Of a stretch of 44,293 nt of DNA, positions 988 to 43,854 are shown one piece after another; the stretch's first letter is position 1; each line of letters opens with the position of its first letter. The DNA comes from Escherichia phage vB_EcoP-UTI89UKE2. The notes beneath the pieces are model-generated. The model did no database searches. It was not told the DNA's origin and saw only the letters and a program-made list of their open reading frames with translations. The stretch lies in sequence record MZ234049.1; one strand, written 5' to 3'. The position numbers were made by a program, and so were the translations under genes.

Positions 988-3615
988 ATGCAAGACCTAC
1001 ACGCTATTCAACTTCAACTTGAAGAAGAAATGTTTAACGGCGGTATCCGTCGCTTTGAAGCGGACCAACAACGCCAGATTGCATCCGGTAATGAATCAGA
1101 CACGGCATGGAATCGCCGCTTATTGTCCGAGTTAATCGCGCCAATGGCTGAAGGTATTCAGGCATACAAGGAAGAGTATGAAGGTAAAAGAGGCCGTGCA
1201 CCGCGTGCATTAGCTTTCATTAACTGCGTAGAAAACGAAGTGGCAGCATATATCACGATGAAAATCGTTATGGATATGCTGAACACGGATGTAACCTTGC
1301 AGGCTATAGCCATGAATGTAGCTGACCGCATTGAGGACCAAGTACGTTTTAGCAAGCTGGAAGGTCACGCCGCCAAATACTTTGAGAAAGTTAAGAAGTC
1401 ACTTAAGGCAAGTAAGACTAAATCATATCGCCATGCGCACAACGTAGCGGTCGTGGCTGAGAAGTCAGTAGCTGACCGTGACGCTGATTTCTCTCGCTGG
1501 GAGGCGTGGCCTAAAGATACCTTGCTACAAATTGGTATGACCTTGCTAGAAATACTGGAAAATAGTGTATTCTTCAATGGTCAGCCTGTCTTTCTTCGCA
1601 CCTTGCGCACTAATGGTGGCAAGCATGGCGTTTACTACTTACAGACTAGCGAACACGTGGGTGAATGGGTAACTGCATTTAAAGAGCACGTAGCTCAGCT
1701 GAGTCCAGCCTATGCGCCTTGCGTTATTCCTCCTCGTCCGTGGGTTTCTCCGTTTAATGGCGGCTTCCATACTGAGAAAGTAGCAAGCCGTATTCGTCTA
1801 GTAAAAGGCAATCGTGAGCACGTCCGCAAGCTGACCAAAAAGCAAATGCCAGCGGTTTACAAGGCTGTTAACGCTTTGCAGGCGACTAAGTGGCAGGTTA
1901 ATAAAGAGGTTTTGCAGGTAGTAGAGGACGTTATCCGTCTCGATCTTGGTTATGGTGTGCCTTCCTTTAAACCACTCATCGACCGTGAGAACAAGCCAGC
2001 TAATCCAGTGCCGTTAGAGTTCCAGCACCTGCGAGGCCGTGAATTGAAAGAGATGCTAACACCGGAGCAATGGCAGGCCTTCATCAACTGGAAGGGTGAA
2101 TGTACTAAGCTGTATACCGCTGAGACTAAGCGCGGCAGCAAGTCGGCGGCGACCGTCCGCATGGTAGGACAGGCCCGTAAATACAGCCAGTTTGACGCTA
2201 TTTATTTTGTATATGCACTGGATAGCCGTTCACGCGTTTATGCGCAATCTAGCACGCTCTCGCCGCAATCAAACGACTTAGGCAAGGCATTGCTCCGTTT
2301 TACCGAAGGGCAGCGTCTTGATAGCGCTGAGGCGCTTAAGTGGTTTTTGGTGAACGGGGCGAATAACTGGGGTTGGGATAAGAAAACTTTTGACGTGCGC
2401 ACCGCTAACGTGCTGGATAGTGAATTTCAAGACATGTGCCGCGACATTGCAGCGGATCCGCTGACCTTCACTCAATGGGTAAATGCCGACTCCCCTTACG
2501 GCTTCCTTGCATGGTGCTTTGAATATGCGCGTTATCTGGATGCACTGGATGAAGGCACGCAAGACCAATTCATGACGCACCTCCCAGTCCATCAAGATGG
2601 TAGTTGTTCTGGTATCCAGCACTACAGTGCTATGCTACGCGATGCAGTAGGTGCGAAAGCGGTAAACCTTAAGCCCTCTGACTCCCCTCAAGATATTTAT
2701 GGTGCCGTTGCGCAGGTAGTAATTCAGAAGAATTATGCATACATGAATGCAGAGGATGCGGAAACCTTCACTTCTGGCAGCGTGACTTTAACAGGTGCAG
2801 AACTTCGTAGCATGGCTAGTGCGTGGGATATGATAGGAATCACTCGCGGCCTGACCAAAAAGCCTGTAATGACACTACCTTATGGCAGCACACGTCTAAC
2901 CTGCCGTGAATCAGTGATTGATTATATCGTTGATTTGGAAGAAAAAGAGGCCCAACGGGCTATTGCGGAAGGGCGTACCGCCAATCCTGTACATCCTTTT
3001 GATAATGACCGCAAAGACAGCCTGACACCTAGCGCAGCTTATAACTATATGACAGCTTTAATCTGGCCTTCTATTTCGGAAGTGGTTAAAGCTCCTATAG
3101 TGGCAATGAAAATGATTCGTCAGCTTGCACGTTTCGCAGCTAAAAGAAACGAAGGCTTAGAATATCCCTTACCAACTGGCTTCATCTTGCAACAAAAGAT
3201 AATGGCTACCGATATGCTCCGCGTATCCACTTGCTTGATGGGTGAAATCAAGATGAGTCTCCAGATTGAAACAGATGTAGTTGATGAAACGGCAATGATG
3301 GGTGCGGCTGCTCCTAACTTCGTCCATGGTCACGATGCTAGCCACCTGATTCTGACTGTATGTGACCTAGTGGATAAAGGTATTACATCCATTGCAGTCA
3401 TCCATGATTCTTTCGGTACTCATGCAGGACGTACCGCAGACCTGCGGGATAGCTTAAGGGAAGAAATGGTTAAGATGTATCAAAACCATAATGCCCTGCA
3501 AAACCTGCTAGATGTGCACGAAGAGCGTTGGTTAGTAGACACCGGAATCCAAGTACCAGAGCAAGGAGAGTTTGACCTTAACGAAATCTTAGTTTCAGAC
3601 TATTGTTTCGCATAA
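988..3615 (+). CDS. single-subunit DNA-dependent RNA polymerase (T7/SP6 type; closest to SP6 RNAP by recollection)
   Basis: 875-aa ORF with RBS AGGAG at 972-976. Contains the family motifs [27 protein letters not shown] and [12 protein letters not shown], and a C-terminal DYCFA. Length and N-terminus [19 protein letters not shown] match SP6-type RNAP. Confidence 0.95.
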
Positions 3616-3622
3616 TATTAAT

Positions 3623-3652
3623 AGGCCATTCCTTAGGGAGTGGCCTTTTTCT
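3623..3652 (+). terminator. stem-loop plus T-run immediately after the RNAP gene
   Basis: GGCCATTCC-loop-GGAGTGGCC followed by TTTTTCTTT. Confidence 0.5.
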
Positions 3653-3676
3653 TTACCTACTACCTGTAACATTTCA

Positions 3677-3719
3677 TTAACATAAAAGTGTCTCACATGT
3701 GAGACTTATTTACCGGACA
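3677..3719 (+). promoter_or_regulatory. palindrome GTCTCACATGTGAGAC abutting a variant phage promoter (TATTTACCGGACACTATAGGATAG)
   Basis: 16-bp perfect palindrome at 3679-3694, directly followed by a sequence matching the phage promoter consensus except at 2-3 positions. Confidence 0.5.
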
Positions 3720-3769
3720 CTATAGGATAGCCGTCGGAGACGGGAAAGAAAGGGAAGATAAAGGATATA

Positions 3770-3830
3770 AAGGAAGTAATAGGTATTAAAGGTTATATAG
3801 GTTATCTAGGAATACCTATTACCTTCTTCC
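3770..3830. repeat. AT-rich block with four AGGT motifs at 9-bp spacing inside an inverted repeat (TAATAGGTATT / AATACCTATTA)
   Basis: AGG at about 3780, 3789, 3798 and 3807; flanking arms are reverse complements. Confidence 0.6.
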
Positions 3831-3868
3831 TTCCTCTTATTACCACTTAGAGGAAGGGCAGACCTAGG

Positions 3869-3914
3869 TTGTCTCACATGTGAGACTTCGTATTTACCGG
3901 ACAGTATAGATAAG
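3869..3914 (+). promoter_or_regulatory. second palindrome GTCTCACATGTGAGAC abutting a second variant promoter-like sequence (TATTTACCGGACAGTATAGATAAG)
   Basis: Palindrome at 3871-3886; the promoter-like sequence differs from consensus in the core (CAGTATAGA vs CACTATAGA), so activity is uncertain. Confidence 0.4.
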
Positions 3915-3940
3915 ATTAACTCACTTTTGGAGATTTAACC

Positions 3941-4069
3941 ATGCGTAACTTTGAGAAGATGGCCCGTAAAGCTAACCGTTTTGACATGGAAGAAGGGCAG
4001 AAGAAAGGCAAGAAGCTGAATAAACCTGTTCGTGACCGTGCATCTAAACGCGCTGCGTGGGAGTTCTAA
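3941..4069 (+). CDS. small basic protein (42 aa)
   Basis: ATG at 3941, in-frame TAA at 4067-4069; sits in the short gap before the primase gene. Absent from the ORF track because it is under 60 aa. Confidence 0.4.
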   Translation: MRNFEKMARKANRFDMEEGQKKGKKLNKPVRDRASKRAAWEF

Positions 4070-4072
4070 GTT

Positions 4073-6061
4073 ATGGCTATTATTCAGAATGTACCGTGTC
4101 CTGCCTGTCAAAAGAATGGACATGATATTACTGGCAACCATCTTATGATATTTGAGGATGGCGCTGGTTACTGTAACCGTGGTCACTTCCATGATAACGG
4201 CAAGCCTTATTACCATAAGCCAGAGGGTGGCATCGAGATAACCGAATTACCTATTACTGGCAATATCAAATATACACCTTCTCAGTTTAAAGAGATGGAG
4301 AAGGAAGGGAAGATTAGCGACCCTAAGCTACGCGCCATCGCACTTGGTGGTATGCGTATGAAAGACCGTTGGGAGGTCATGAATGAGCAAGAAAGGGCAG
4401 AACAAGAAGCAGAGTGGAAACTTGATGTTGAATGGTTCCTCACGCTTAAGCGTAAGAATCTTGTTTCCCGACACATTCGCGGCGACATTTGCGCATTGTA
4501 CGATGTACGTGTCGGACACGATGAAGATGGTAGAGTCTCACGGCATTACTATCCACGCTTCGAGAAAGGTGAGCTAGTAGGCGCTAAGTGTCGCACATTA
4601 CCTAAAGACTTTAAGTTTGGTCATTTAGGTAAACTCTTTGGTATGCAAGATCTTTTCGGTATGAATACTTTGTCTCACGTGTTAGACAAGGGAAGACGAA
4701 AGGATTGCTTGCTTATTGTGGGCGGCGAACTGGATGCACTAGCAGCACAGCAAATGCTCCTTGATTCTGCCAAGGGTACTAAGTGGGAAGGCCAGCCTTA
4801 CCATGTATGGTCTGTCAATAAAGGTGAGTCTTGCCTTGAAGAGATAGTACAGAACCGTGAACACATCGCCCAATTTAAGAAGATTATATGGGGTTTTGAT
4901 GGAGATGAGGTAGGGCAGAAGCAGAATCAGCAAGCGGCTCGCCTGTTTCCTGGCAAATCCTATATCCTTGAATACCCTTCTGGTTGCAAAGATGCTAACA
5001 AGGCATTGATGGCTGGCAAGGCTAAAGAGTTTGTTGATGCTTGGTTTAATGCCAAGTCATCTGATGAAGTCTTTGGTAGCCAGATTAAATCTATCGCATC
5101 TCAAAGGGATAAGCTCAAGGCTGCACGTCCAGAGCAAGGGCTATCATGGCCTTGGCCTAAGCTGAACAAGGTAACGCTAGGTATTCGTAAGAACCAGCTT
5201 ATCATTGTAGGTGCAGGTTCTGGTGTAGGTAAGACTGAGTTCCTCCGCGAAGTGGTTAAACATCTCATTGAAGAACACGGTGAATCTGTAGGCATCATTT
5301 CTACAGAAGACCCAATGGTCAAGGTGTCCCGTGCTTTTATCGGCAAGTGGATTGATAAGCGTATTGAGTTACCGCCAACCAACGACCCGAAAGAAGACGG
5401 ATACCGTGAGGTGTTCGACTACACCGAGGAAGAAGCTAACGCTGCCATTGATTATGTAGCTGATACAGGAAAGCTATTTGTGGCTGACCTAGAAGGCGAT
5501 TATTCTATGGAGAAGGTAGAGCAAACTTGCCTAGAGTTTGAGGCTATGGGCATTTCTAATATCATCATTGATAACTTAACGGGGATTAAATTAGATGAGC
5601 GTGCTTTTGGTGGGAAGGTTGGTGCACTTGATGAATGCGTCAAACGAATTGGTACTATCAAAGACCGACATGCGGTTACGATTTTCCTTGTCTCTCACCT
5701 TACACGTCCTCCGGCAAACCGTACCCAACACGAAGAAGGTGGCGAAGTTATCCTTTCTGACTTCCGAGGCTCAGGCGCTATCGGATTCTGGGCATCTTAC
5801 GCCTTGGGGATTGAGCGTAATACAAGAGCTGAAACGCTTGATGAAAGGACTACCACGTACATCTCGTGTGTCAAAGACCGCGATCAAGGTATCTACACTG
5901 GAACCAAGGTCATGCTTAAAGGTGACATTCAGACCGGACGTTTGATGGAACCACAAGCCCGTACTAAGTCATTTGATACAGGTGAAGCAAGGCAGCAAGA
6001 GGTGCCTGATTTACCGGACACTATAGAAGAGACAAACTTTGAAGATGAACAGGAGTTTTAA
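4073..6061 (+). CDS. DNA primase/helicase (T7 gp4-like)
   Basis: N-terminal Cys4 zinc ribbon (CPACQKNGHD...YCNRGH), Walker A GAGSGVGKTEF, and a C-terminal acidic tail ending FEDEQEF as in T7 gp4. Confidence 0.93.
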   Translation: MAIIQNVPCPACQKNGHDITGNHLMIFEDGAGYCNRGHFHDNGKPYYHKPEGGIEITELPITGNIKYTPSQFKEMEKEGKISDPKLRAIALGGMRMKDRWEVMNEQERAEQEAEWKLDVEWFLTLKRKNLVSRHIRGDICALYDVRVGHDEDGRVSRHYYPRFEKGELVGAKCRTLPKDFKFGHLGKLFGMQDLFGMNTLSHVLDKGRRKDCLLIVGGELDALAAQQMLLDSAKGTKWEGQPYHVWSVNKGESCLEEIVQNREHIAQFKKIIWGFDGDEVGQKQNQQAARLFPGKSYILEYPSGCKDANKALMAGKAKEFVDAWFNAKSSDEVFGSQIKSIASQRDKLKAARPEQGLSWPWPKLNKVTLGIRKNQLIIVGAGSGVGKTEFLREVVKHLIEEHGESVGIISTEDPMVKVSRAFIGKWIDKRIELPPTNDPKEDGYREVFDYTEEEANAAIDYVADTGKLFVADLEGDYSMEKVEQTCLEFEAMGISNIIIDNLTGIKLDERAFGGKVGALDECVKRIGTIKDRHAVTIFLVSHLTRPPANRTQHEEGGEVILSDFRGSGAIGFWASYALGIERNTRAETLDERTTTYISCVKDRDQGIYTGTKVMLKGDIQTGRLMEPQARTKSFDTGEARQQEVPDLPDTIEETNFEDEQEF

Positions 6062-6233: not shown

Positions 6234-6267
6234 GGGCTTGTCTCACATGTGAGACAGGCTCTTATTA
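6234..6267 (+). terminator. palindrome hairpin (core TGTCTCACATGTGAGACA, 6239-6256) with GC clamp and U-rich tail
   Basis: 18-bp perfect palindrome extended by GGCT/AGGC and followed by TCTTATT. Confidence 0.45.
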
Positions 6268-10316: not shown

Positions 10317-10384
10317 GTTATACTCAAGGTCACTTACGAGTGGCCTTTATGAATAACTTATTCCTACTTATTTTGTCTAACATG

Positions 10385-10406
10385 ATTTACTGGACACTAT
10401 AGAAGG
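10385..10406 (+). promoter_or_regulatory. phage RNAP promoter (ATTTACTGGACACTATAGAAGG)
   Basis: Exact match to the consensus recurring in this genome; SP6-type core CACTATAGAAG. Confidence 0.8.
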
Positions 10407-10460
10407 AAAGCCTAGGTAATCTAGGTTTATAAGGTAGTATAGGTAATTAAGTAAATATAG
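10405..10460. repeat. phased (T)AGGT repeat array downstream of a promoter
   Basis: TAGGT/AAGGT/TAGGA motifs at about 9-bp spacing (CCTAGGTAATCTAGGTTTATAAGGTAGTATAGGTAA...). Confidence 0.6.
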
Positions 10461-10471
10461 GAGATATAAAT

Positions 10472-33620: not shown

Positions 33621-35518
33621 TGGCTAAGGCAAGAGAATCACAAGCGGAGGCTCTTGCCAGATGGGAGATGCTACAGGAGTTACAGCAGACCTTTCCTTAC
33701 ACAGCGGAAGGTTTGCTTCTCTTTGCAGATACAGTTATTCATAACTTAATTGCAGGCAACCCTCATCTGATTCGTATGCAGGCGGATATCTTGAAGTTCC
33801 TATTTTACGGACACAAGTACCGCCTCATCGAAGCGCCTCGTGGTATCGCTAAGACAACACTATCAGCAATCTATACGGTATTCCGTATTATTCATGAACC
33901 ACATAAGCGTATCATGGTTGTGTCCCAAAACGCCAAGCGAGCAGAGGAAATCGCAGGTTGGGTAGTTAAAATCTTCCGTGGCTTAGACTTTCTTGAGTTT
34001 ATGCTGCCGGATATCTACGCTGGGGACCGTGCATCCGTTAAGGCGTTTGAGATTCATTACACCCTACGTGGTAGTGATAAGTCTCCTTCTGTATCCTGTT
34101 ACTCAATCGAAGCAGGTATGCAGGGTGCTCGTGCTGATATTATTCTAGCGGATGACGTAGAGTCGATGCAGAATGCTCGTACGGCAGCGGGCCGTGCCTT
34201 GCTTGAGGAACTGACTAAGGAGTTTGAATCTATCAACCAGTTTGGGGATATCATTTACCTTGGTACACCTCAGAACGTAAACTCTATCTACAACAACCTG
34301 CCTGCTCGTGGTTACTCTGTTCGTATCTGGACTGCGCGTTACCCTTCAGTAGAGCAAGAGCAATGTTATGGCGACTTCCTTGCACCTATGATTGTTCAAG
34401 ATATGAAGGACAACCCAGCACTTCGCTCAGGGTACGGGTTGGATGGTAATAGTGGTGCACCTTGTGCCCCTGAAATGTATGATGATGAAGTCCTGATTGA
34501 GAAGGAAATCTCTCAGGGTGCTGCTAAGTTCCAGCTTCAGTTCATGCTTAACACTCGCATGATGGATGCTGACAGATACCCATTACGCCTGAACAATCTA
34601 ATCTTCACCTCGTTTGGTACAGAGGAAGTCCCTGTGATGCCTACGTGGAGTAATGATTCCATAAACATCATTGGTGATGCACCTAAGTATGGTAACAAGC
34701 CTACGGATTTCATGTACAGACCTGTAGCTCGCCCATACGAATGGGGTGCTGTCTCCCGCAAGATTATGTATATTGACCCTGCGGGTGGTGGTAAGAACGG
34801 AGATGAGACGGGTGTAGCCATCGTATTCCTGCACGGCACATTCATTTATGTGTATCAGTGCTTTGGTGTACCTGGCGGATACCGAGAGTCGTCCCTGAAT
34901 CGCATTGTGCAGGCCGCAAAGCAGGCGGGTGTTAAAGAGGTATTCATTGAGAAGAACTTTGGTCATGGCGCGTTTGAGGCGGTAATTAAGCCGTACTTTG
35001 AACGAGAGTGGCCTGTAACTCTGGAAGAGGATTACGCCACCGGACAGAAAGAGTTGCGTATCATTGAGACGCTGGAGCCGCTCATGGCAGCCCATAGGCT
35101 TATCTTCAATGCAGAGATGGTGAAGTCAGACTTTGAGTCGGTACAGCACTATCCGCTTGAACTACGCATGTCCTACAGTCTTTTCAATCAAATGTCGAAC
35201 ATAACGATTGAGAAGAACAGCCTCCGGCACGATGACCGCCTAGACGCCCTGTATGGCGCTATACGGCAATTAACTTCTCAGATAGACTATGACGAGGTTA
35301 CACGGATTAATCGCCTCAGAGCGCAGGAGATGCGCGATTACATCCATGCTATGAATACACCTCATCTACGCAGGGCAATGCTATATGGAGATTACGGTAC
35401 TGAGCGAAGAGTGACCAACACTTCCGTAGCGATGCAGCAGCGAGTTTACGGGCAGAACTACCGAAATAAATCGGCAAGCAGAAATACACTTTCTGCAAGG
35501 ATTTCAAGGACTTATTAA
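33620..35518 (+). CDS. terminase large subunit (gp19-like)
   Basis: Walker A-like RGIAKTT ... ILADDVE (Walker B) and C-terminal nuclease region. The track start at 33617 is a TTG. Confidence 0.9.
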   Translation: MAKARESQAEALARWEMLQELQQTFPYTAEGLLLFADTVIHNLIAGNPHLIRMQADILKFLFYGHKYRLIEAPRGIAKTTLSAIYTVFRIIHEPHKRIMVVSQNAKRAEEIAGWVVKIFRGLDFLEFMLPDIYAGDRASVKAFEIHYTLRGSDKSPSVSCYSIEAGMQGARADIILADDVESMQNARTAAGRALLEELTKEFESINQFGDIIYLGTPQNVNSIYNNLPARGYSVRIWTARYPSVEQEQCYGDFLAPMIVQDMKDNPALRSGYGLDGNSGAPCAPEMYDDEVLIEKEISQGAAKFQLQFMLNTRMMDADRYPLRLNNLIFTSFGTEEVPVMPTWSNDSINIIGDAPKYGNKPTDFMYRPVARPYEWGAVSRKIMYIDPAGGGKNGDETGVAIVFLHGTFIYVYQCFGVPGGYRESSLNRIVQAAKQAGVKEVFIEKNFGHGAFEAVIKPYFEREWPVTLEEDYATGQKELRIIETLEPLMAAHRLIFNAEMVKSDFESVQHYPLELRMSYSLFNQMSNITIEKNSLRHDDRLDALYGAIRQLTSQIDYDEVTRINRLRAQEMRDYIHAMNTPHLRRAMLYGDYGTERRVTNTSVAMQQRVYGQNYRNKSASRNTLSARISRTY

Positions 35519-35538
35519 TTACTGGACACTATAGAAGG
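35517..35538 (+). promoter_or_regulatory. phage RNAP promoter (AATTACTGGACACTATAGAAGG)
   Basis: Consensus; starts immediately after the terminase stop. Confidence 0.8.
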
Positions 35539-35544
35539 AAGGCC

Positions 35545-35630
35545 CGGATAATAAGATAAATAATAGGTAATATATAGGTTAACCTAGGTTATATAGGTAT
35601 GCATTAGTATGGGTGTACTCCTGTACACCC
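35545..35630. repeat. phased TAGGT repeat array (4 copies, 9-11 bp spacing) followed by leader hairpin GGGTGTAC-TCCT-GTACACCC
   Basis: AATAGGTAATATATAGGTTAACCTAGGTTATATAGGTATG, then a perfect 8-bp stem at 35611-35630. Confidence 0.6.
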
Positions 35631-35677
35631 CCCTATTCCTTACTTCCTTACTATATTTACATAATAGGAGAGAGACA

Positions 35678-38366: not shown

Positions 38367-40802
38367 ATGATTCAAAGACTAGGTTCTTCATTAGTTAAAT
38401 TCAAGAGTAAAATAGCAGGTGCAATCTGGCGTAACTTGGATGACAAGCTCACCGAGGTTGTATCGCTTAAAGATTTTGGAGCCAAAGGTGATGGTAAGAC
38501 AAACGACCAAGATGCAGTAAATGCAGCGATGGCTTCAGGTAAGAGAATTGACGGTGCTGGTGCTACTTACAAAGTATCATCTTTACCTGATATGGAGCGA
38601 TTCTATAACACCCGCTTCGTATGGGAACGTTTAGCAGGTCAACCTCTTTACTATGTGAGTAAAGGTTTTATCAATGGTGAACTCTATAAAATCACGGACA
38701 ACCCTTATTACAATGCTTGGCCTCAAGACAAGGCGTTTGTATATGAGAATGTGATATATGCACCCTACATGGGTAGCGACCGTCATGGTGTTAGTCGTCT
38801 GCATGTATCATGGGTTAAGTCTGGTGACGATGGTCAAACATGGTCTACTCCAGAGTGGCTAACTGATCTGCATCCAGATTACCCTACAGTGAACTATCAT
38901 TGTATGAGTATGGGTGTATGTCGCAACCGTCTGTTTGCCATGATTGAAACACGTACTTTAGCCAAGAACGCACTAACCAATTGTGCATTGTGGGATCGCC
39001 CTATGTCTCGTAGTCTGCATCTTACTGGTGGTATCACTAAGGCTGCAAATCAGCGTTATGCAACAATCCATGTACCTGATCACGGATTATTCGTGGGCGA
39101 TTTTGTTAGCTTCTCTAATTCTGCGGTAACAGGTGTAACTGGTGATATGAAAGTTGCAACAGTTATAGATAAGGACAACTTCACGGTTCTTACAGCCAAT
39201 CAGCAGACCTCTGATTTGAACAATGCTGGAAAGAATTGGCACATGGGTACTTCCTTCCATAAGTCTCCATGGCGTAAGACAGATCTTGGCCTGATACCTC
39301 GTGTTACTGAAGTTCATAGCTTTGCTACTATTGATAACAATGGCTTTGTTATGGGTTATCACCAAGGCGACGTAGCTCCACGCGAAGTTGGTCTTTTCTA
39401 CTTCCCTGATGCTTTTAACAATCCATCTAATTATGTTCGTCGTCAGATACCATCTGAGTACGAACCGGGTGCTGCAGAGCCATGCATCAAGTACTATGAC
39501 GGTGTATTATACCTTATCACTCGTGGTACTCGTGGCGACCGACTAGGAAGCTCTTTGCATCGTAGTAGAGATATAGGTCAGACTTGGGAGTCACTGAGAT
39601 TTCCACATAATGTTCATCATACTACCTTACCTTTTGCTAAAGTAGGAGATGACCTTATTATGTTTGGTTCAGAACGTGCAGAAAATGAATGGGAAGCAGG
39701 TGCACCAGATGATCGTTACAAGGCATCTTATCCTCGTACCTTCTATGCACGATTGAATGTAAACAATTGGAATGCAGATGATATTGAATGGGTTAACATC
39801 ACAGACCAAATCTATCAAGGTGACATTGTGAACTCTAGTGTAGGTGTAGGTTCTGTTGTAGTTAAAGACAGCTACATTTACTATATCTTTGGTGGTGAAA
39901 ACCATTTCAACCCAATGACTTATGGTGACAACAAAGATAAAGACCCATTTAAAGGTAATGGACACCCTACTGATATATACTGCTATAAGATGCAGATTGC
40001 AAATGACAGTCGTGTATCTCGTAAGTTTACATATGGTGCAACTCCTGGTCAGGCTATACCTACTTTCATGGGTACTGATGGTATTCGCACTATTCCTGCT
40101 CCACTTCACTTATCAGGAGAGGTAGTTGCCGCAGATATGACTGTCGAACACCTTACCTTGAAGGCAAGTACAAGTGCTAATATTCGCTCAGAGATGCTGA
40201 TGGAGGGTGAATATGGGTTCATTGGTAAGACTATACCAACGGATAACCCAACCGCCCAACGTGTTATCATCTCTGGTGGAGAGGGTACAGCAGCAGATAC
40301 CGGTGCGCAAATTACCTTACACGGAGCAGGTTCTAGCACTTCTAGACGCGCAGTATATAATGCCAATGAGCACTTGTTCCAAAGTGGAGCTATCATGCCA
40401 TACAATGATAACGTGTATCCTGCTGGTGGCCCTCGTAATAGATTCACTACTATCCATCTTACAAGTGACCCTATTATTACGTCGGATGCCACTCATAAGT
40501 ATGGATCACAAGGTATTGATGAGAGTGTACTAAAGGCATGGGGTAAGGTTAGCTTCAAGCAGTACAAGTTGATTGGTGAGATGTCTCGTGGTGTGCACCA
40601 CACTCACTTTGGTGTATTGGCACAAGACATTGTAGCTGCTTTTGCATCCGAAGGGTTAGATGCAATCGACTTCGGCATTGTCTCCTTCGAAGAAGGTCAG
40701 TTTGGTGTTAGATATAGTGAAATCTTAATCTTGGAGGCTGCTTATACTCGCTATCGTTTAGACAAGTTAGAGGAGATGTATGCCACTAATAAAATCAGTT
40801 AA
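38367..40802 (+). CDS. tailspike endo-N-acetylneuraminidase (endosialidase) with C-terminal intramolecular chaperone domain
   Basis: 811 aa from ATG 38367 (RBS AAGGAGG). Sequence recognised from memory as K1-phage endosialidase, including the C-terminal block ending YATNKIS. Confidence 0.88.
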   Translation: MIQRLGSSLVKFKSKIAGAIWRNLDDKLTEVVSLKDFGAKGDGKTNDQDAVNAAMASGKRIDGAGATYKVSSLPDMERFYNTRFVWERLAGQPLYYVSKGFINGELYKITDNPYYNAWPQDKAFVYENVIYAPYMGSDRHGVSRLHVSWVKSGDDGQTWSTPEWLTDLHPDYPTVNYHCMSMGVCRNRLFAMIETRTLAKNALTNCALWDRPMSRSLHLTGGITKAANQRYATIHVPDHGLFVGDFVSFSNSAVTGVTGDMKVATVIDKDNFTVLTANQQTSDLNNAGKNWHMGTSFHKSPWRKTDLGLIPRVTEVHSFATIDNNGFVMGYHQGDVAPREVGLFYFPDAFNNPSNYVRRQIPSEYEPGAAEPCIKYYDGVLYLITRGTRGDRLGSSLHRSRDIGQTWESLRFPHNVHHTTLPFAKVGDDLIMFGSERAENEWEAGAPDDRYKASYPRTFYARLNVNNWNADDIEWVNITDQIYQGDIVNSSVGVGSVVVKDSYIYYIFGGENHFNPMTYGDNKDKDPFKGNGHPTDIYCYKMQIANDSRVSRKFTYGATPGQAIPTFMGTDGIRTIPAPLHLSGEVVAADMTVEHLTLKASTSANIRSEMLMEGEYGFIGKTIPTDNPTAQRVIISGGEGTAADTGAQITLHGAGSSTSRRAVYNANEHLFQSGAIMPYNDNVYPAGGPRNRFTTIHLTSDPIITSDATHKYGSQGIDESVLKAWGKVSFKQYKLIGEMSRGVHHTHFGVLAQDIVAAFASEGLDAIDFGIVSFEEGQFGVRYSEILILEAAYTRYRLDKLEEMYATNKIS

Positions 40803-41595: not shown

Positions 41596-41788
41596 GCACA
41601 TGCAAGCATGTAAGATGCCAATAGGTCGCGGTCGGTAGACCGCTAAAGAAAGAGAATAGTAATAAGATGCAGTAGGAGGAACACCAGAAACCTAGCCAAC
41701 CTAGCCTATCCTAGCTCTGTATCTATTGCTTTTCCTTAGTCTAACATGTGAGACAACCTAGATTTATCTTAGTGATGATAGCTTAGTG

Positions 41789-43498: not shown

Positions 43499-43852
43499 AT
43501 GGCTATGTCTAATATGACTTACTCTCAGGTTTACAACACCGCTCATGCTGCATTAGTTGAACGTGTCTGGGATGATGCTATTGATTGTATCGATAACGCA
43601 CATGATGCAATCCATGAGGTGGCGGATAGTGCTGTACCAATCTATTATGCTGACATCTTCTCGGTGATGGCCAGTGAAGGAATCGACCACTTCTTCGAGG
43701 ATTCTGGCTTAATGCCAGACACTAAGGATGTGACTGTCGTACTACAAGCCCGTATTTATGAACAACTCACCATTGATTTATGGGAACGTGTTCAAGATAT
43801 GATTGATGAGTACATCGATTCCGCTGAGGATTCAGAAGAAGAGGAAGAATAA
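43499..43852 (+). CDS. ocr: Ocr-like DNA-mimic anti-restriction protein (T7 gene 0.3 homologue)
   Basis: MAMSNMTY ... [13 protein letters not shown] ... [11 protein letters not shown] ... [14 protein letters not shown] and an acidic C-terminus closely follow T7 Ocr as recalled. RBS GAGGA; the track start at 43484 is an extension. Confidence 0.85.
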
Positions 43853-43854
43853 GG

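Follow-up and report, generated by a model that had tools for sequence, protein, structure and literature searches.

A candidate T7-type origin layout with a conserved, phased AGGT repeat in the gap that separates RNA polymerase from primase in an SP6-group phage

The non-coding gap behind the RNA polymerase (RNAP) gene of Escherichia phage vB_EcoP-UTI89UKE2 (MZ234049.1) has, judged from its sequence, the features that define a T7-type origin, and the same applies to two other places in the genome that score higher. By analogy with T7, it is probably one of three modules of this kind, located at 3.7, 10.4 and 35.5 kb. The layout is of a kind already known, that of the T7-type origin, and its unexplained conserved part is an AGGT repeat. 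An initial annotation had described in this gap two tandem promoter-like sequences, each preceded by a palindrome and separated by an AT-rich block with an inverted repeat and phased AGGT motifs, and had proposed it as the primary replication origin. Every element so described was confirmed and is non-random, although two coordinates had to be corrected, and the origin interpretation as a whole is partly supported.

The window, i.e., the whole stretch of DNA that was analysed (44,293 nucleotides), is 100% identical to the record of Escherichia phage vB_EcoP-UTI89UKE3 (MZ234050.1), which was used for gene annotation. The phage is a Vectrevirus of the K1E/K1-5/SP6 group (Autographiviridae, Molineuxvirinae), with genome averages of 45% GC and 53% purine. 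Since the record is permuted, with the early genes (Ocr at 43500) at the right side of the window, the physical left end should lie near 41.6-41.8 kb.

Layout of the gap

The gap extends from 3616 to 3940 (325 bp), between the stop codon of the RNAP gene (3615) and an ATG at 3941. It is non-coding as first described, although its extent had been given as 3655-3940 (290 bp). It holds ORFs of 23-33 amino acids and nothing longer, and a search for sigma-70 promoters in it found none. From left to right, it contains an R1.1-like hairpin, a palindrome, promoter 1, a 5' hairpin, the AGG(T) block, two inverted repeats, a second palindrome and promoter 2, followed by a homologue of T7 gene 1.1 (Table 1). 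This small gene is gene 8 in the K1-5 annotation and is absent from MZ234050.1, which has two small minus-strand ORFs instead; these are probably spurious.

Table 1. Coordinates of the gap elements, their flanking genes and the two sister modules
Feature	Coordinates	Strand	Basis
Phage RNA polymerase gene (T7 gene 1 homologue), left gap boundary	988..3615	+	875-aa ORF; MZ234050.1: DNA-directed RNA polymerase
GC-rich hairpin (3623-3646) and T run (GGCCATTCC..GGAGTGGCCTTTTT)	3623..3655	+	Intrinsic-terminator-like; resembles T7 RNase III site R1.1
Conserved spacer (..ACCTGTAACATTTCATTAACA..)	3656..3689	+	Nearly invariant over three genera (alignment of 12 relatives)
Palindrome 1, GTCTCACATGTGAGAC	3690..3705	.	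Ends 2 nt before promoter 1
Promoter 1 (ATTTACCGGACACTATAGGATAG), +1 = G3725	3708..3730	+	Exact pattern match; conserved in all relatives examined
5' hairpin CCGTC-GGA-GACGG, +7 to +19 of the promoter-1 transcript	3731..3743	+	Predicted in every fold
Purine-rich, AT-rich block, AGG(T/A) every 9 bp	3744..3811	+	Composition, repeat chains, duplex stability
Inverted repeat A, arms 3770-3787 / 3811-3828	3770..3828	.	18-nt arms, 89% complementary; AGGT repeats in 23-nt loop
Inverted repeat B, CCTTCCTCT / AGAGGAAGG, arms 3829-3837 / 3849-3857	3829..3857	.	9-nt arms, 100% complementary; 11-nt loop
Palindrome 2, GTCTCACATGTGAGAC	3871..3886	.	End lies 5 nt from promoter 2; no variation in 13 Vectrevirus sequences
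Promoter 2 (ATTTACCGGACAGTATAGATAAG), +1 = G3909, conserved weakened variant	3892..3914	+	Pattern match, G at -5
42-aa ORF, T7 gene 1.1 homologue	3941..4069	+	BLASTP vs T7 gp1.1: 54% identity, E = 6e-12
Primase/helicase gene, right-hand context	4073..6061	+	ORF; MZ234050.1 annotation
10.4-kb module: R1.1-like hairpin 10327-10346, promoter 10385-10407, 9-bp TAGGTAATA array 10413-10461	10321..10461	+	Least stable 60-bp window
35.5-kb module: promoter, AGGT array 35565-35599, GC hairpin, pyrimidine tract	35517..35660	+	Second least stable 60-bp window

Transcription signals

The first element of the gap is a GC-rich hairpin (10-bp stem with 6 GC pairs, followed by TTTTTCTTT) that scored as a Rho-independent terminator in the terminator scan and, folded as DNA, gave z = -3.7. 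Because it carries a T run, it probably ends host transcription. In T7, the early terminator comes after gene 1.3, whereas here the terminator-like hairpin stands directly after the RNAP gene. The same segment aligns with GAGTGGCCTTTATGATTGACCTTCTTCCGGT of T7, i.e., the R1.1 hairpin and its 3' flank, with a score reached by 7 of 300 shuffles. The window has just two exact copies of GAGTGGCCTT (3638 and 10338) and T7 just three (1456, 5875 and 6436); we take the T7 positions to adjoin the RNase III sites R0.5, R1.1 and R1.3 (Dunn and Studier coordinates). This GAGTGGCCTT core is carried by the hairpins at 3623-3646 and 10327-10346 and stands next to the three T7 sites, and the hairpin at 10327-10346 is nearly identical to T7 R1.1 over ~45 nt. 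The 3.6-kb hairpin differs from the T7 sites in being followed by a T run and classed by the scan as an intrinsic terminator, and RNase III cleavage here is putative.

Phage promoters were recognised by their sequence. The pattern has 12 sites in the window, all 12 on the plus strand, against 0.03 expected. The core of promoter 1 (ATTTACCGGACACTATAG, 3708-3725) has no mismatches, and that of promoter 2 (ATTTACCGGACAGTATAG, 3892-3909) is the only one of the 12 with a G at -5. Many of the lineages compared likewise have an off-consensus second promoter, the substitution differing from one lineage to the next. In the phage studied here, just 31 nt separate promoter 2 from the ATG. Both tandem promoter-like sites of the initial annotation are thus present; the one at 3891-3914 was placed correctly, but the one given as 3696-3719 lay about 12 nt too far to the left and covered half of the palindrome.

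A palindrome does precede each of the two promoters, as had been claimed, and eight copies are found in the window (allowing up to 3 mismatches) against 0.25 expected. SP6 carries it as GTCYAACRTGTTGGAC at the same eight syntenic places, and GTCCAACGTGTTGGAC is the syntenic counterpart of palindrome 1 in SP6 and Klebsiella phages. The copies at 6240, 7415 and 28816 are the tips of 13-bp hairpins whose flanks vary among phages yet remain complementary, and most SP6 copies have a T/G pair that can wobble on the plus strand only. The two gap copies score only as weak 6-bp versions in the terminator scan, palindrome 2 forming a weak terminator-like hairpin with the downstream TTCGTATTT. Altogether, these features point to an RNA hairpin that would mark transcript ends and that, in the gap, is placed just before each promoter, although such a role does not account for the uniformity of the palindrome sequence within a genome.

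Another conserved structure is the hairpin at the 5' end of the promoter-1 transcript. Its third pair is G-C here, A-U in CrRp3, P433.1 and phD2B, and U-A in Kp7, and such compensatory changes indicate selection on the transcript as RNA.

These signals could also mean that the gap serves transcription and the mRNA alone, with replication starting elsewhere. It would then consist of a site where early transcripts are terminated or processed, a pair of middle promoters unequal in strength, and a long leader. The 5' hairpin and the other hairpins of this leader would stabilise or attenuate the primase-operon mRNA. The strong terminator-like hairpin directly after the RNAP gene, the place of promoters 1 and 2 as the first phage promoters ahead of gene 1.1 and primase, and the preserved pairing of the 5' hairpin are all consistent with such a role. 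In the sister modules, the array also leads into a GC hairpin with its pyrimidine tract, behind which come a ribosome-binding site and a gene. However, this does not explain why a full promoter and a 184-nt leader stand ahead of the second promoter, why the three leaders are the least stable duplexes of the genome by the measure that picks the T7 origins (see below), or why the AGGT motif is phased. We consider it possible, while leaning against it. As the same DNA in T7 is both leader and origin, this explanation leaves room for an origin role.

The AGG(T) block and the inverted repeats

Between the promoters, the AT-rich block with an inverted repeat was found as initially described. Positions 3745-3811 have 28% GC and 75% purine, and the 70-nt window from 3746 is the only one in the whole genome with GC of 0.30 or less and purine of 0.70 or more. 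AGGT occurs at 3781, 3790 and 3799 and AGGA at 3808, with AGG also at 3762 and 3771. The 9-bp phasing that had been noted was reproduced by Tandem Repeats Finder (period 9 over 3758-3810), and chains of at least three AGGT spaced 8-11 bp are far more frequent than in shuffled sequences, with four on the plus strand and none on the minus strand against 0.06 expected.

The arms of inverted repeat A can pair purine-rich with pyrimidine-rich sequence, and inverted repeat B sits inside the pyrimidine-rich arm. Folded as DNA, the inverted-repeat region gave z = -2.4 on the plus strand and -3.3 on the minus strand, and as RNA z = -1.8. The pairing register of inverted repeat A differs between genera. 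A conserved long-range RNA structure was rejected, since RNAalifold over three genera retains the 5' hairpin and two 4-5-bp stems, and the arms pair in different registers. Rfam 15 gave no match at gathering score in the whole window, with sub-threshold matches to hairpin models in 3560-4000. The 35.5-kb leader folds like shuffled sequences (z = -0.18).

Could the inverted repeat between the promoters (3770-3828 plus 3829-3857) be the RNase III site that corresponds to T7 R1.1? The latter lies between phi1.1A and phi1.1B, i.e., likewise between two promoters, and the purine arm can be folded against the pyrimidine arm in an imperfect stem of ~20 bp in all genera. A 10-mer, ACCTTCTTCC, is also found on the 3' side of T7 R1.1. 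However, the hairpin at 3623-3646 is clearly related to R1.1 in sequence, and the hairpin at 10327-10346 even more so; both have the AAGGNC...GAGTGGCCTT hairpin core, which is missing from 3770-3828. Besides, the pairing is out of register between genera, RNAalifold keeps the two short stems, and the fold z-scores are modest (-1.5 to -2.2). This correspondence seems very unlikely to us.

Conservation among relatives

The gap layout is conserved across the Molineuxvirinae in the sequences compared. It is 93-98% identical within Vectrevirus and ~70% in SP6 (Zindervirus) and Klebsiella phages. The order of terminator, palindrome, promoter, (hairpin) and AGGT array recurs in Proteus Pm5460, Lelliottia phD2B, Klebsiella Kp7, Erwinia Era103, Pantoea Nifs112 and Vibrio BD5. 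A search of IMG/VR with the primase yielded close relatives only, and the distant ones were taken from the phage collection. Within Vectrevirus, variation is lowest in the palindromes and promoters, in the core of the array and in the pyrimidine arm. In several relatives, HNH endonuclease genes follow the module, which is itself undisturbed.

The arrays themselves occur at the same two or three syntenic sites downstream of promoters in SP6, Pm5460 and Era103, and their copy number ranges from 3 to 22. Era103 lacks AT-richness in its arrays, and the array behind its terminase gene consists of 6.5 copies of a perfect, GC-rich 27-bp repeat (3 x 9), with 22 AGGT. At the place corresponding to the gap, there are ten copies of NAGTAGNNN in Pseudomonas phage Achelous. 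In view of Era103, it is the motif with its phasing that is conserved rather than meltability, and conservation of AGGT without AT-richness is not predicted by the T7 origin model.

This situation raises another possibility, that the arrays are sequence-specific repeated sites, either iteron-like DNA for a phage or host protein or a short repeat RNA running from promoter 1 to the downstream hairpins. They would function independently of AT-richness and could mark origins or serve something unrelated. The motif is kept across genera whose promoters and palindromes differ, at the same few syntenic sites and with a widely varying copy number, and the arrays are strand specific and far above chance; those of Era103 and Achelous also speak for it. 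Against this stand the absence of any known binding factor, the lack of an Rfam match or a conserved long-range RNA structure, and the shuffle-like folding of the 35.5-kb leader. The perfect repeat of Era103 may also reflect recent slippage rather than selection. A role of the arrays as Shine-Dalgarno-like ribosome sponges was rejected, as their pairing to the 3' end of 16S rRNA is ordinary and no array is in the top ten windows. We rate the repeated-site explanation as somewhat unlikely. A further proposition is that the arrays, always found just behind two or three particular phage promoters, are a previously undescribed sequence-specific element of the Molineuxvirinae, recognised by a factor of its own either on the DNA, like iterons, or on a repeat RNA; in our judgement, this is rather unlikely.

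Duplex stability and the three modules

Nearest-neighbour duplex stability was computed in 60-bp windows, using the T7 genome as a positive control. The four least stable windows of T7 start at 417, 5931, 18561 and 39248, just downstream of phiOL (which we assume to be origin-associated), phi1.1B, phi6.5 and phiOR, respectively. In the phage studied here, the three least stable segments start, in this order, at 10413, 35549 and 3754. Each of them contains an AGGT array and is found 12-30 nt beyond the start of a phage promoter, these starts being 10385, 35517 and 3708. The 35.5-kb promoter overlaps the end of the large terminase gene, which is the position of phiOR in T7. In SP6 and Pm5460, the block homologous to the one at 3.7 kb ranks fifth in the same scan.

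Two other measures were discarded. By R-loop propensity (RNA:DNA hybrid minus duplex energy), 3723-3782 was the second most favourable window, but the measure failed the T7 control, as it ranks the real origins of T7 among the least favourable. The GC, AT, purine and keto skews were tried as origin markers, and the cumulative GC skew rises monotonically with no turn at 3.8 kb. Skew is somewhat lower to the left of 3.3 kb, but other low stretches are present as well, so that it is uninformative on the origin.

In the papers searched, no experimentally mapped origin was found for phages of the SP6, K1E and K1-5 type, the one lead being second-hand. In 2004, Dobbins et al. reportedly suggested an origin of bidirectional replication of SP6 at the DNA polymerase gene, which lies just upstream of the module corresponding to that at 10.4 kb. 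As far as this second-hand statement goes, it also fits a gap at 3.7 kb devoted to transcription only. With the 10.4- and 35.5-kb modules scoring higher and the SP6 hint pointing elsewhere, the term "primary," used initially for the 3.7-kb module, is not justified.

Comparison with T7 and other origins

In T7, phi1.1A and phi1.1B are the primary origins and phiOR and phi6.5 secondary ones, and an origin requires only a phage promoter (PMC8373140), whose transcript primes the DNA polymerase (PMC8373140; bioRxiv 10.1101/2024.07.25.605042). The T7 order is gene 1, phi1.1A, the R1.1 hairpin, phi1.1B, an AT-rich stretch and gene 1.1. The primary-origin region of T7 and the gap occupy the same site, between the RNAP gene and gene 1.1 or its homologue, and both have two tandem rightward promoters, an R1.1-type hairpin upstream of a promoter and, downstream of it, an easily melted AT-rich block with a short repeated motif. 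However, the hairpin of T7 is between the promoters and its AT block after both, whereas here the hairpin comes before both promoters and the block between them. The likeness to the T7 primary origin claimed in the initial annotation is real and, given the gp1.1 homologue, the R1.1-like hairpin and the unstable block after promoter 1, stronger than first described, but it does not extend to the position of the block. The best correspondence appears to be that of R1.1, phi1.1B and the AT-rich stretch of T7 with the hairpin, promoter 1 and the AGG block, the extra promoter being upstream in T7 and downstream here. Also unlike T7, the block here is made up of ~68 bp of 9-bp AGG(T) repeats, rich in purines, followed by a pyrimidine arm able to pair with it, and a 16-bp palindrome, which T7 lacks, stands ahead of each promoter.

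The secondary origins of T7 (phiOR, phi6.5, together with phiOL) likewise combine a promoter with an unstable block; T7 has four such regions and this phage three. Here, the modules share the AGGT repeat, and two of them share the R1.1-like hairpin. By the stability measure, no module comparable to phiOL is present at the left end.

Iteron origins, as in plasmids and phage lambda, also have short direct repeats phased near one helical turn beside an easily melted stretch. However, the units here are 9 bp with a 4-5-bp core instead of 17-22 bp, and the arrays are on one strand only, just downstream of a phage promoter. No gene for an iteron-type initiator was recognised in the MZ234050.1 annotation, and the arrays do not class as an iteron origin. 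The primase site of SP6 is 5'-GCA-3' (PMC2034472). The gap has one GCA on the plus strand, at 3858, and none on the minus strand; it is located outside the block and absent in the Klebsiella relatives, and a trinucleotide carries little information.

Proposed role of the gap

The gap is certainly the boundary between early and middle transcription, and it is also the leader of the primase operon, laid out like the interval between genes 1 and 1.1 of T7. Transcripts of the host polymerase would end or be cleaved at the R1.1-like hairpin, which has a T run. The phage RNAP would then start at promoter 1 and produce a transcript with the 5' hairpin, followed by the easily melted AGG(T) block. The weakened promoter 2, behind a palindrome able to form a hairpin, would act just ahead of the gene 1.1 homologue and the primase/helicase gene. 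By analogy with T7, promoter 1 and the unstable block may work as a transcription-primed origin, in which the phage polymerase would open the duplex, the 3' end of the RNA would be extended by the phage DNA polymerase, and the primase/helicase would load onto the displaced strand. The same DNA would double as promoter and leader for the primase operon.

We tentatively put forward the gap as such a T7-type transcription-primed origin, with a confidence that falls a little short of even. In its favour, we counted the synteny of RNAP gene, gap and gp1.1 homologue with T7, the R1.1-like hairpin directly upstream of promoter 1, the consensus promoter followed by a block of such low GC and high purine content, a stability measure that recovers the origin regions of T7, the 35.5-kb module placed like phiOR directly after the large terminase gene, and the conservation of the layout across relatives. 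Against it, we counted that the 3.7-kb module is the third of three in the stability scan, that the homologous block of SP6 and Pm5460 ranks fifth, that the second-hand statement on SP6 points to the DNA polymerase gene, that the cumulative GC skew does not turn at 3.8 kb, that 5' leaders are AT-rich in general (Era103), that the arrays of Era103 are not AT-rich, that the 5' hairpin seems to be selected as RNA, and that the sole GCA of the gap falls outside the block.

Implications

SP6, K1E and K1-5-type phages are widely used, the first as the source of SP6 RNA polymerase and others in therapy against bacteria with the K1 capsule. For this group, a calibrated sequence criterion yields three short origin candidates, at 3.7, 10.4 and 35.5 kb. 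If the origin were confirmed, it would help in building SP6-based orthogonal replicons akin to those of T7, and it would tell how far the design of promoter plus meltable DNA extends across the Autographiviridae. If a dedicated factor does read the AGGT repeats, SP6-like phages would have a step of repeat recognition, absent from T7, by which their origins are specified or regulated. The conservation of this repeat beyond AT-richness could thus reveal an extra layer of control.

Replication origin-like modules

The likeness to the T7 origin region is closer in sequence for the 10.4-kb module than for the one in the gap between the RNAP and primase genes at 3.7 kb. At 10.4 kb, ACTCAAGGTCACTTACGAGTGGCCTTTATGAATAACTTATTCC is nearly identical to R1.1, the T7 RNase III site, and is followed by a promoter and by the least stable 9-bp-repeat block in the genome. 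A further module, at 35.5 kb, occupies the position of the T7 promoter phiOR; its GC hairpin reads GGGTGTAC..GTACACCC, and it has counterparts in SP6 (37773), Pm5460 (38781) and Era103 (40222).

Features of the window discussed in this section
Feature	Position	Strand	Remarks
Minus-strand ORFs	3595-3696, 3916-4011	-	Listed in MZ234050.1, in the gap
Gene 1.1 homologue	3941-4069	+	42 aa
R1.1-like site ACTCAAGGTCACTTACGAGTGGCCTTTATGAATAACTTATTCC	10321-10365
Promoter	10385		3' of R1.1-like site
9-bp-repeat block	10413-10461		Downstream of R1.1-like site and promoter
35.5-kb module	35517-35660		Promoter overlapping the end of the large terminase gene, then AGGT array, GC hairpin, pyrimidine tract
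9-bp-period repeat, AACCTAGCC-like	41689-41715		2.8 copies
Ocr	43500-43853
16-bp palindromes GTCTCACATGTGAGAC	3690, 3871, 4672, 6240, 7415, 12356, 28816, 41739		Eight sites

The AGGT array, in which an AGG(T) motif recurs every 9 bp downstream of a phage promoter, can be compared with repeats elsewhere. Behind the terminase gene of Era103 and directly 3' of a phage promoter, there is a perfect tandem repeat, GTCTATAGGTAGGCCCAGGTTATCCAG (40265-40440; 27 bp, 6.5 copies, 100% identity), which represents the array in expanded and GC-rich form. In Pseudomonas phage Achelous, the first promoter that follows the RNAP gene has ten NAGTAGNNN units in strict 9-bp phasing downstream of it (ca. 645-735), at the same place and with the same period as the AGGT arrays but with a different motif. 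In T7 itself, the AT-rich stretches after phiOL and phi1.1B (405-480 and 5923-6006) have their own short repeat, ACTTAAAG / CTTAAG, spaced at 10 to 13 bp, that is similar to the motif in the leaders preceding strong ribosome-binding sites of this phage.

Palindromes and genome ends

The palindromes, uniform in sequence within a genome, are probably RNA hairpins. Three of the eight, located after stop codons, cap longer hairpins whose flanks covary, and one lies inside the primase gene. SP6 has eight syntenic copies of GTCYAACRTGTTGGAC, the one matching position 41739 being found at 493. The AACCTAGCC-like repeat is next to the 41739 palindrome, close to where the physical left end of the genome is presumed to be. 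The record is circularly permuted with respect to K1-5 (window coordinate equal to the K1-5 coordinate minus ca. 2313), with the early region, including Ocr, at its right end. Regarding the records of relatives, that of ULINTec4 contains, 3' of the terminator T run (ca. 640-855), an insertion of >200 nt that consists almost entirely of T and is most likely an artefact of sequencing or assembly.

Annotation and insertions between the RNAP and primase genes

The gene 1.1 homologue, with 54% identity to T7 gp1.1, is not annotated in MZ234050.1, and the two minus-strand ORFs listed there are probably spurious. HNH homing-endonuclease genes were found repeatedly between the RNAP and primase genes, before or after the gene 1.1 homologue (UAB_Phi78, BP12B, PM 93, phD2B and Nifs112). 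This interval is a hot spot for insertion.
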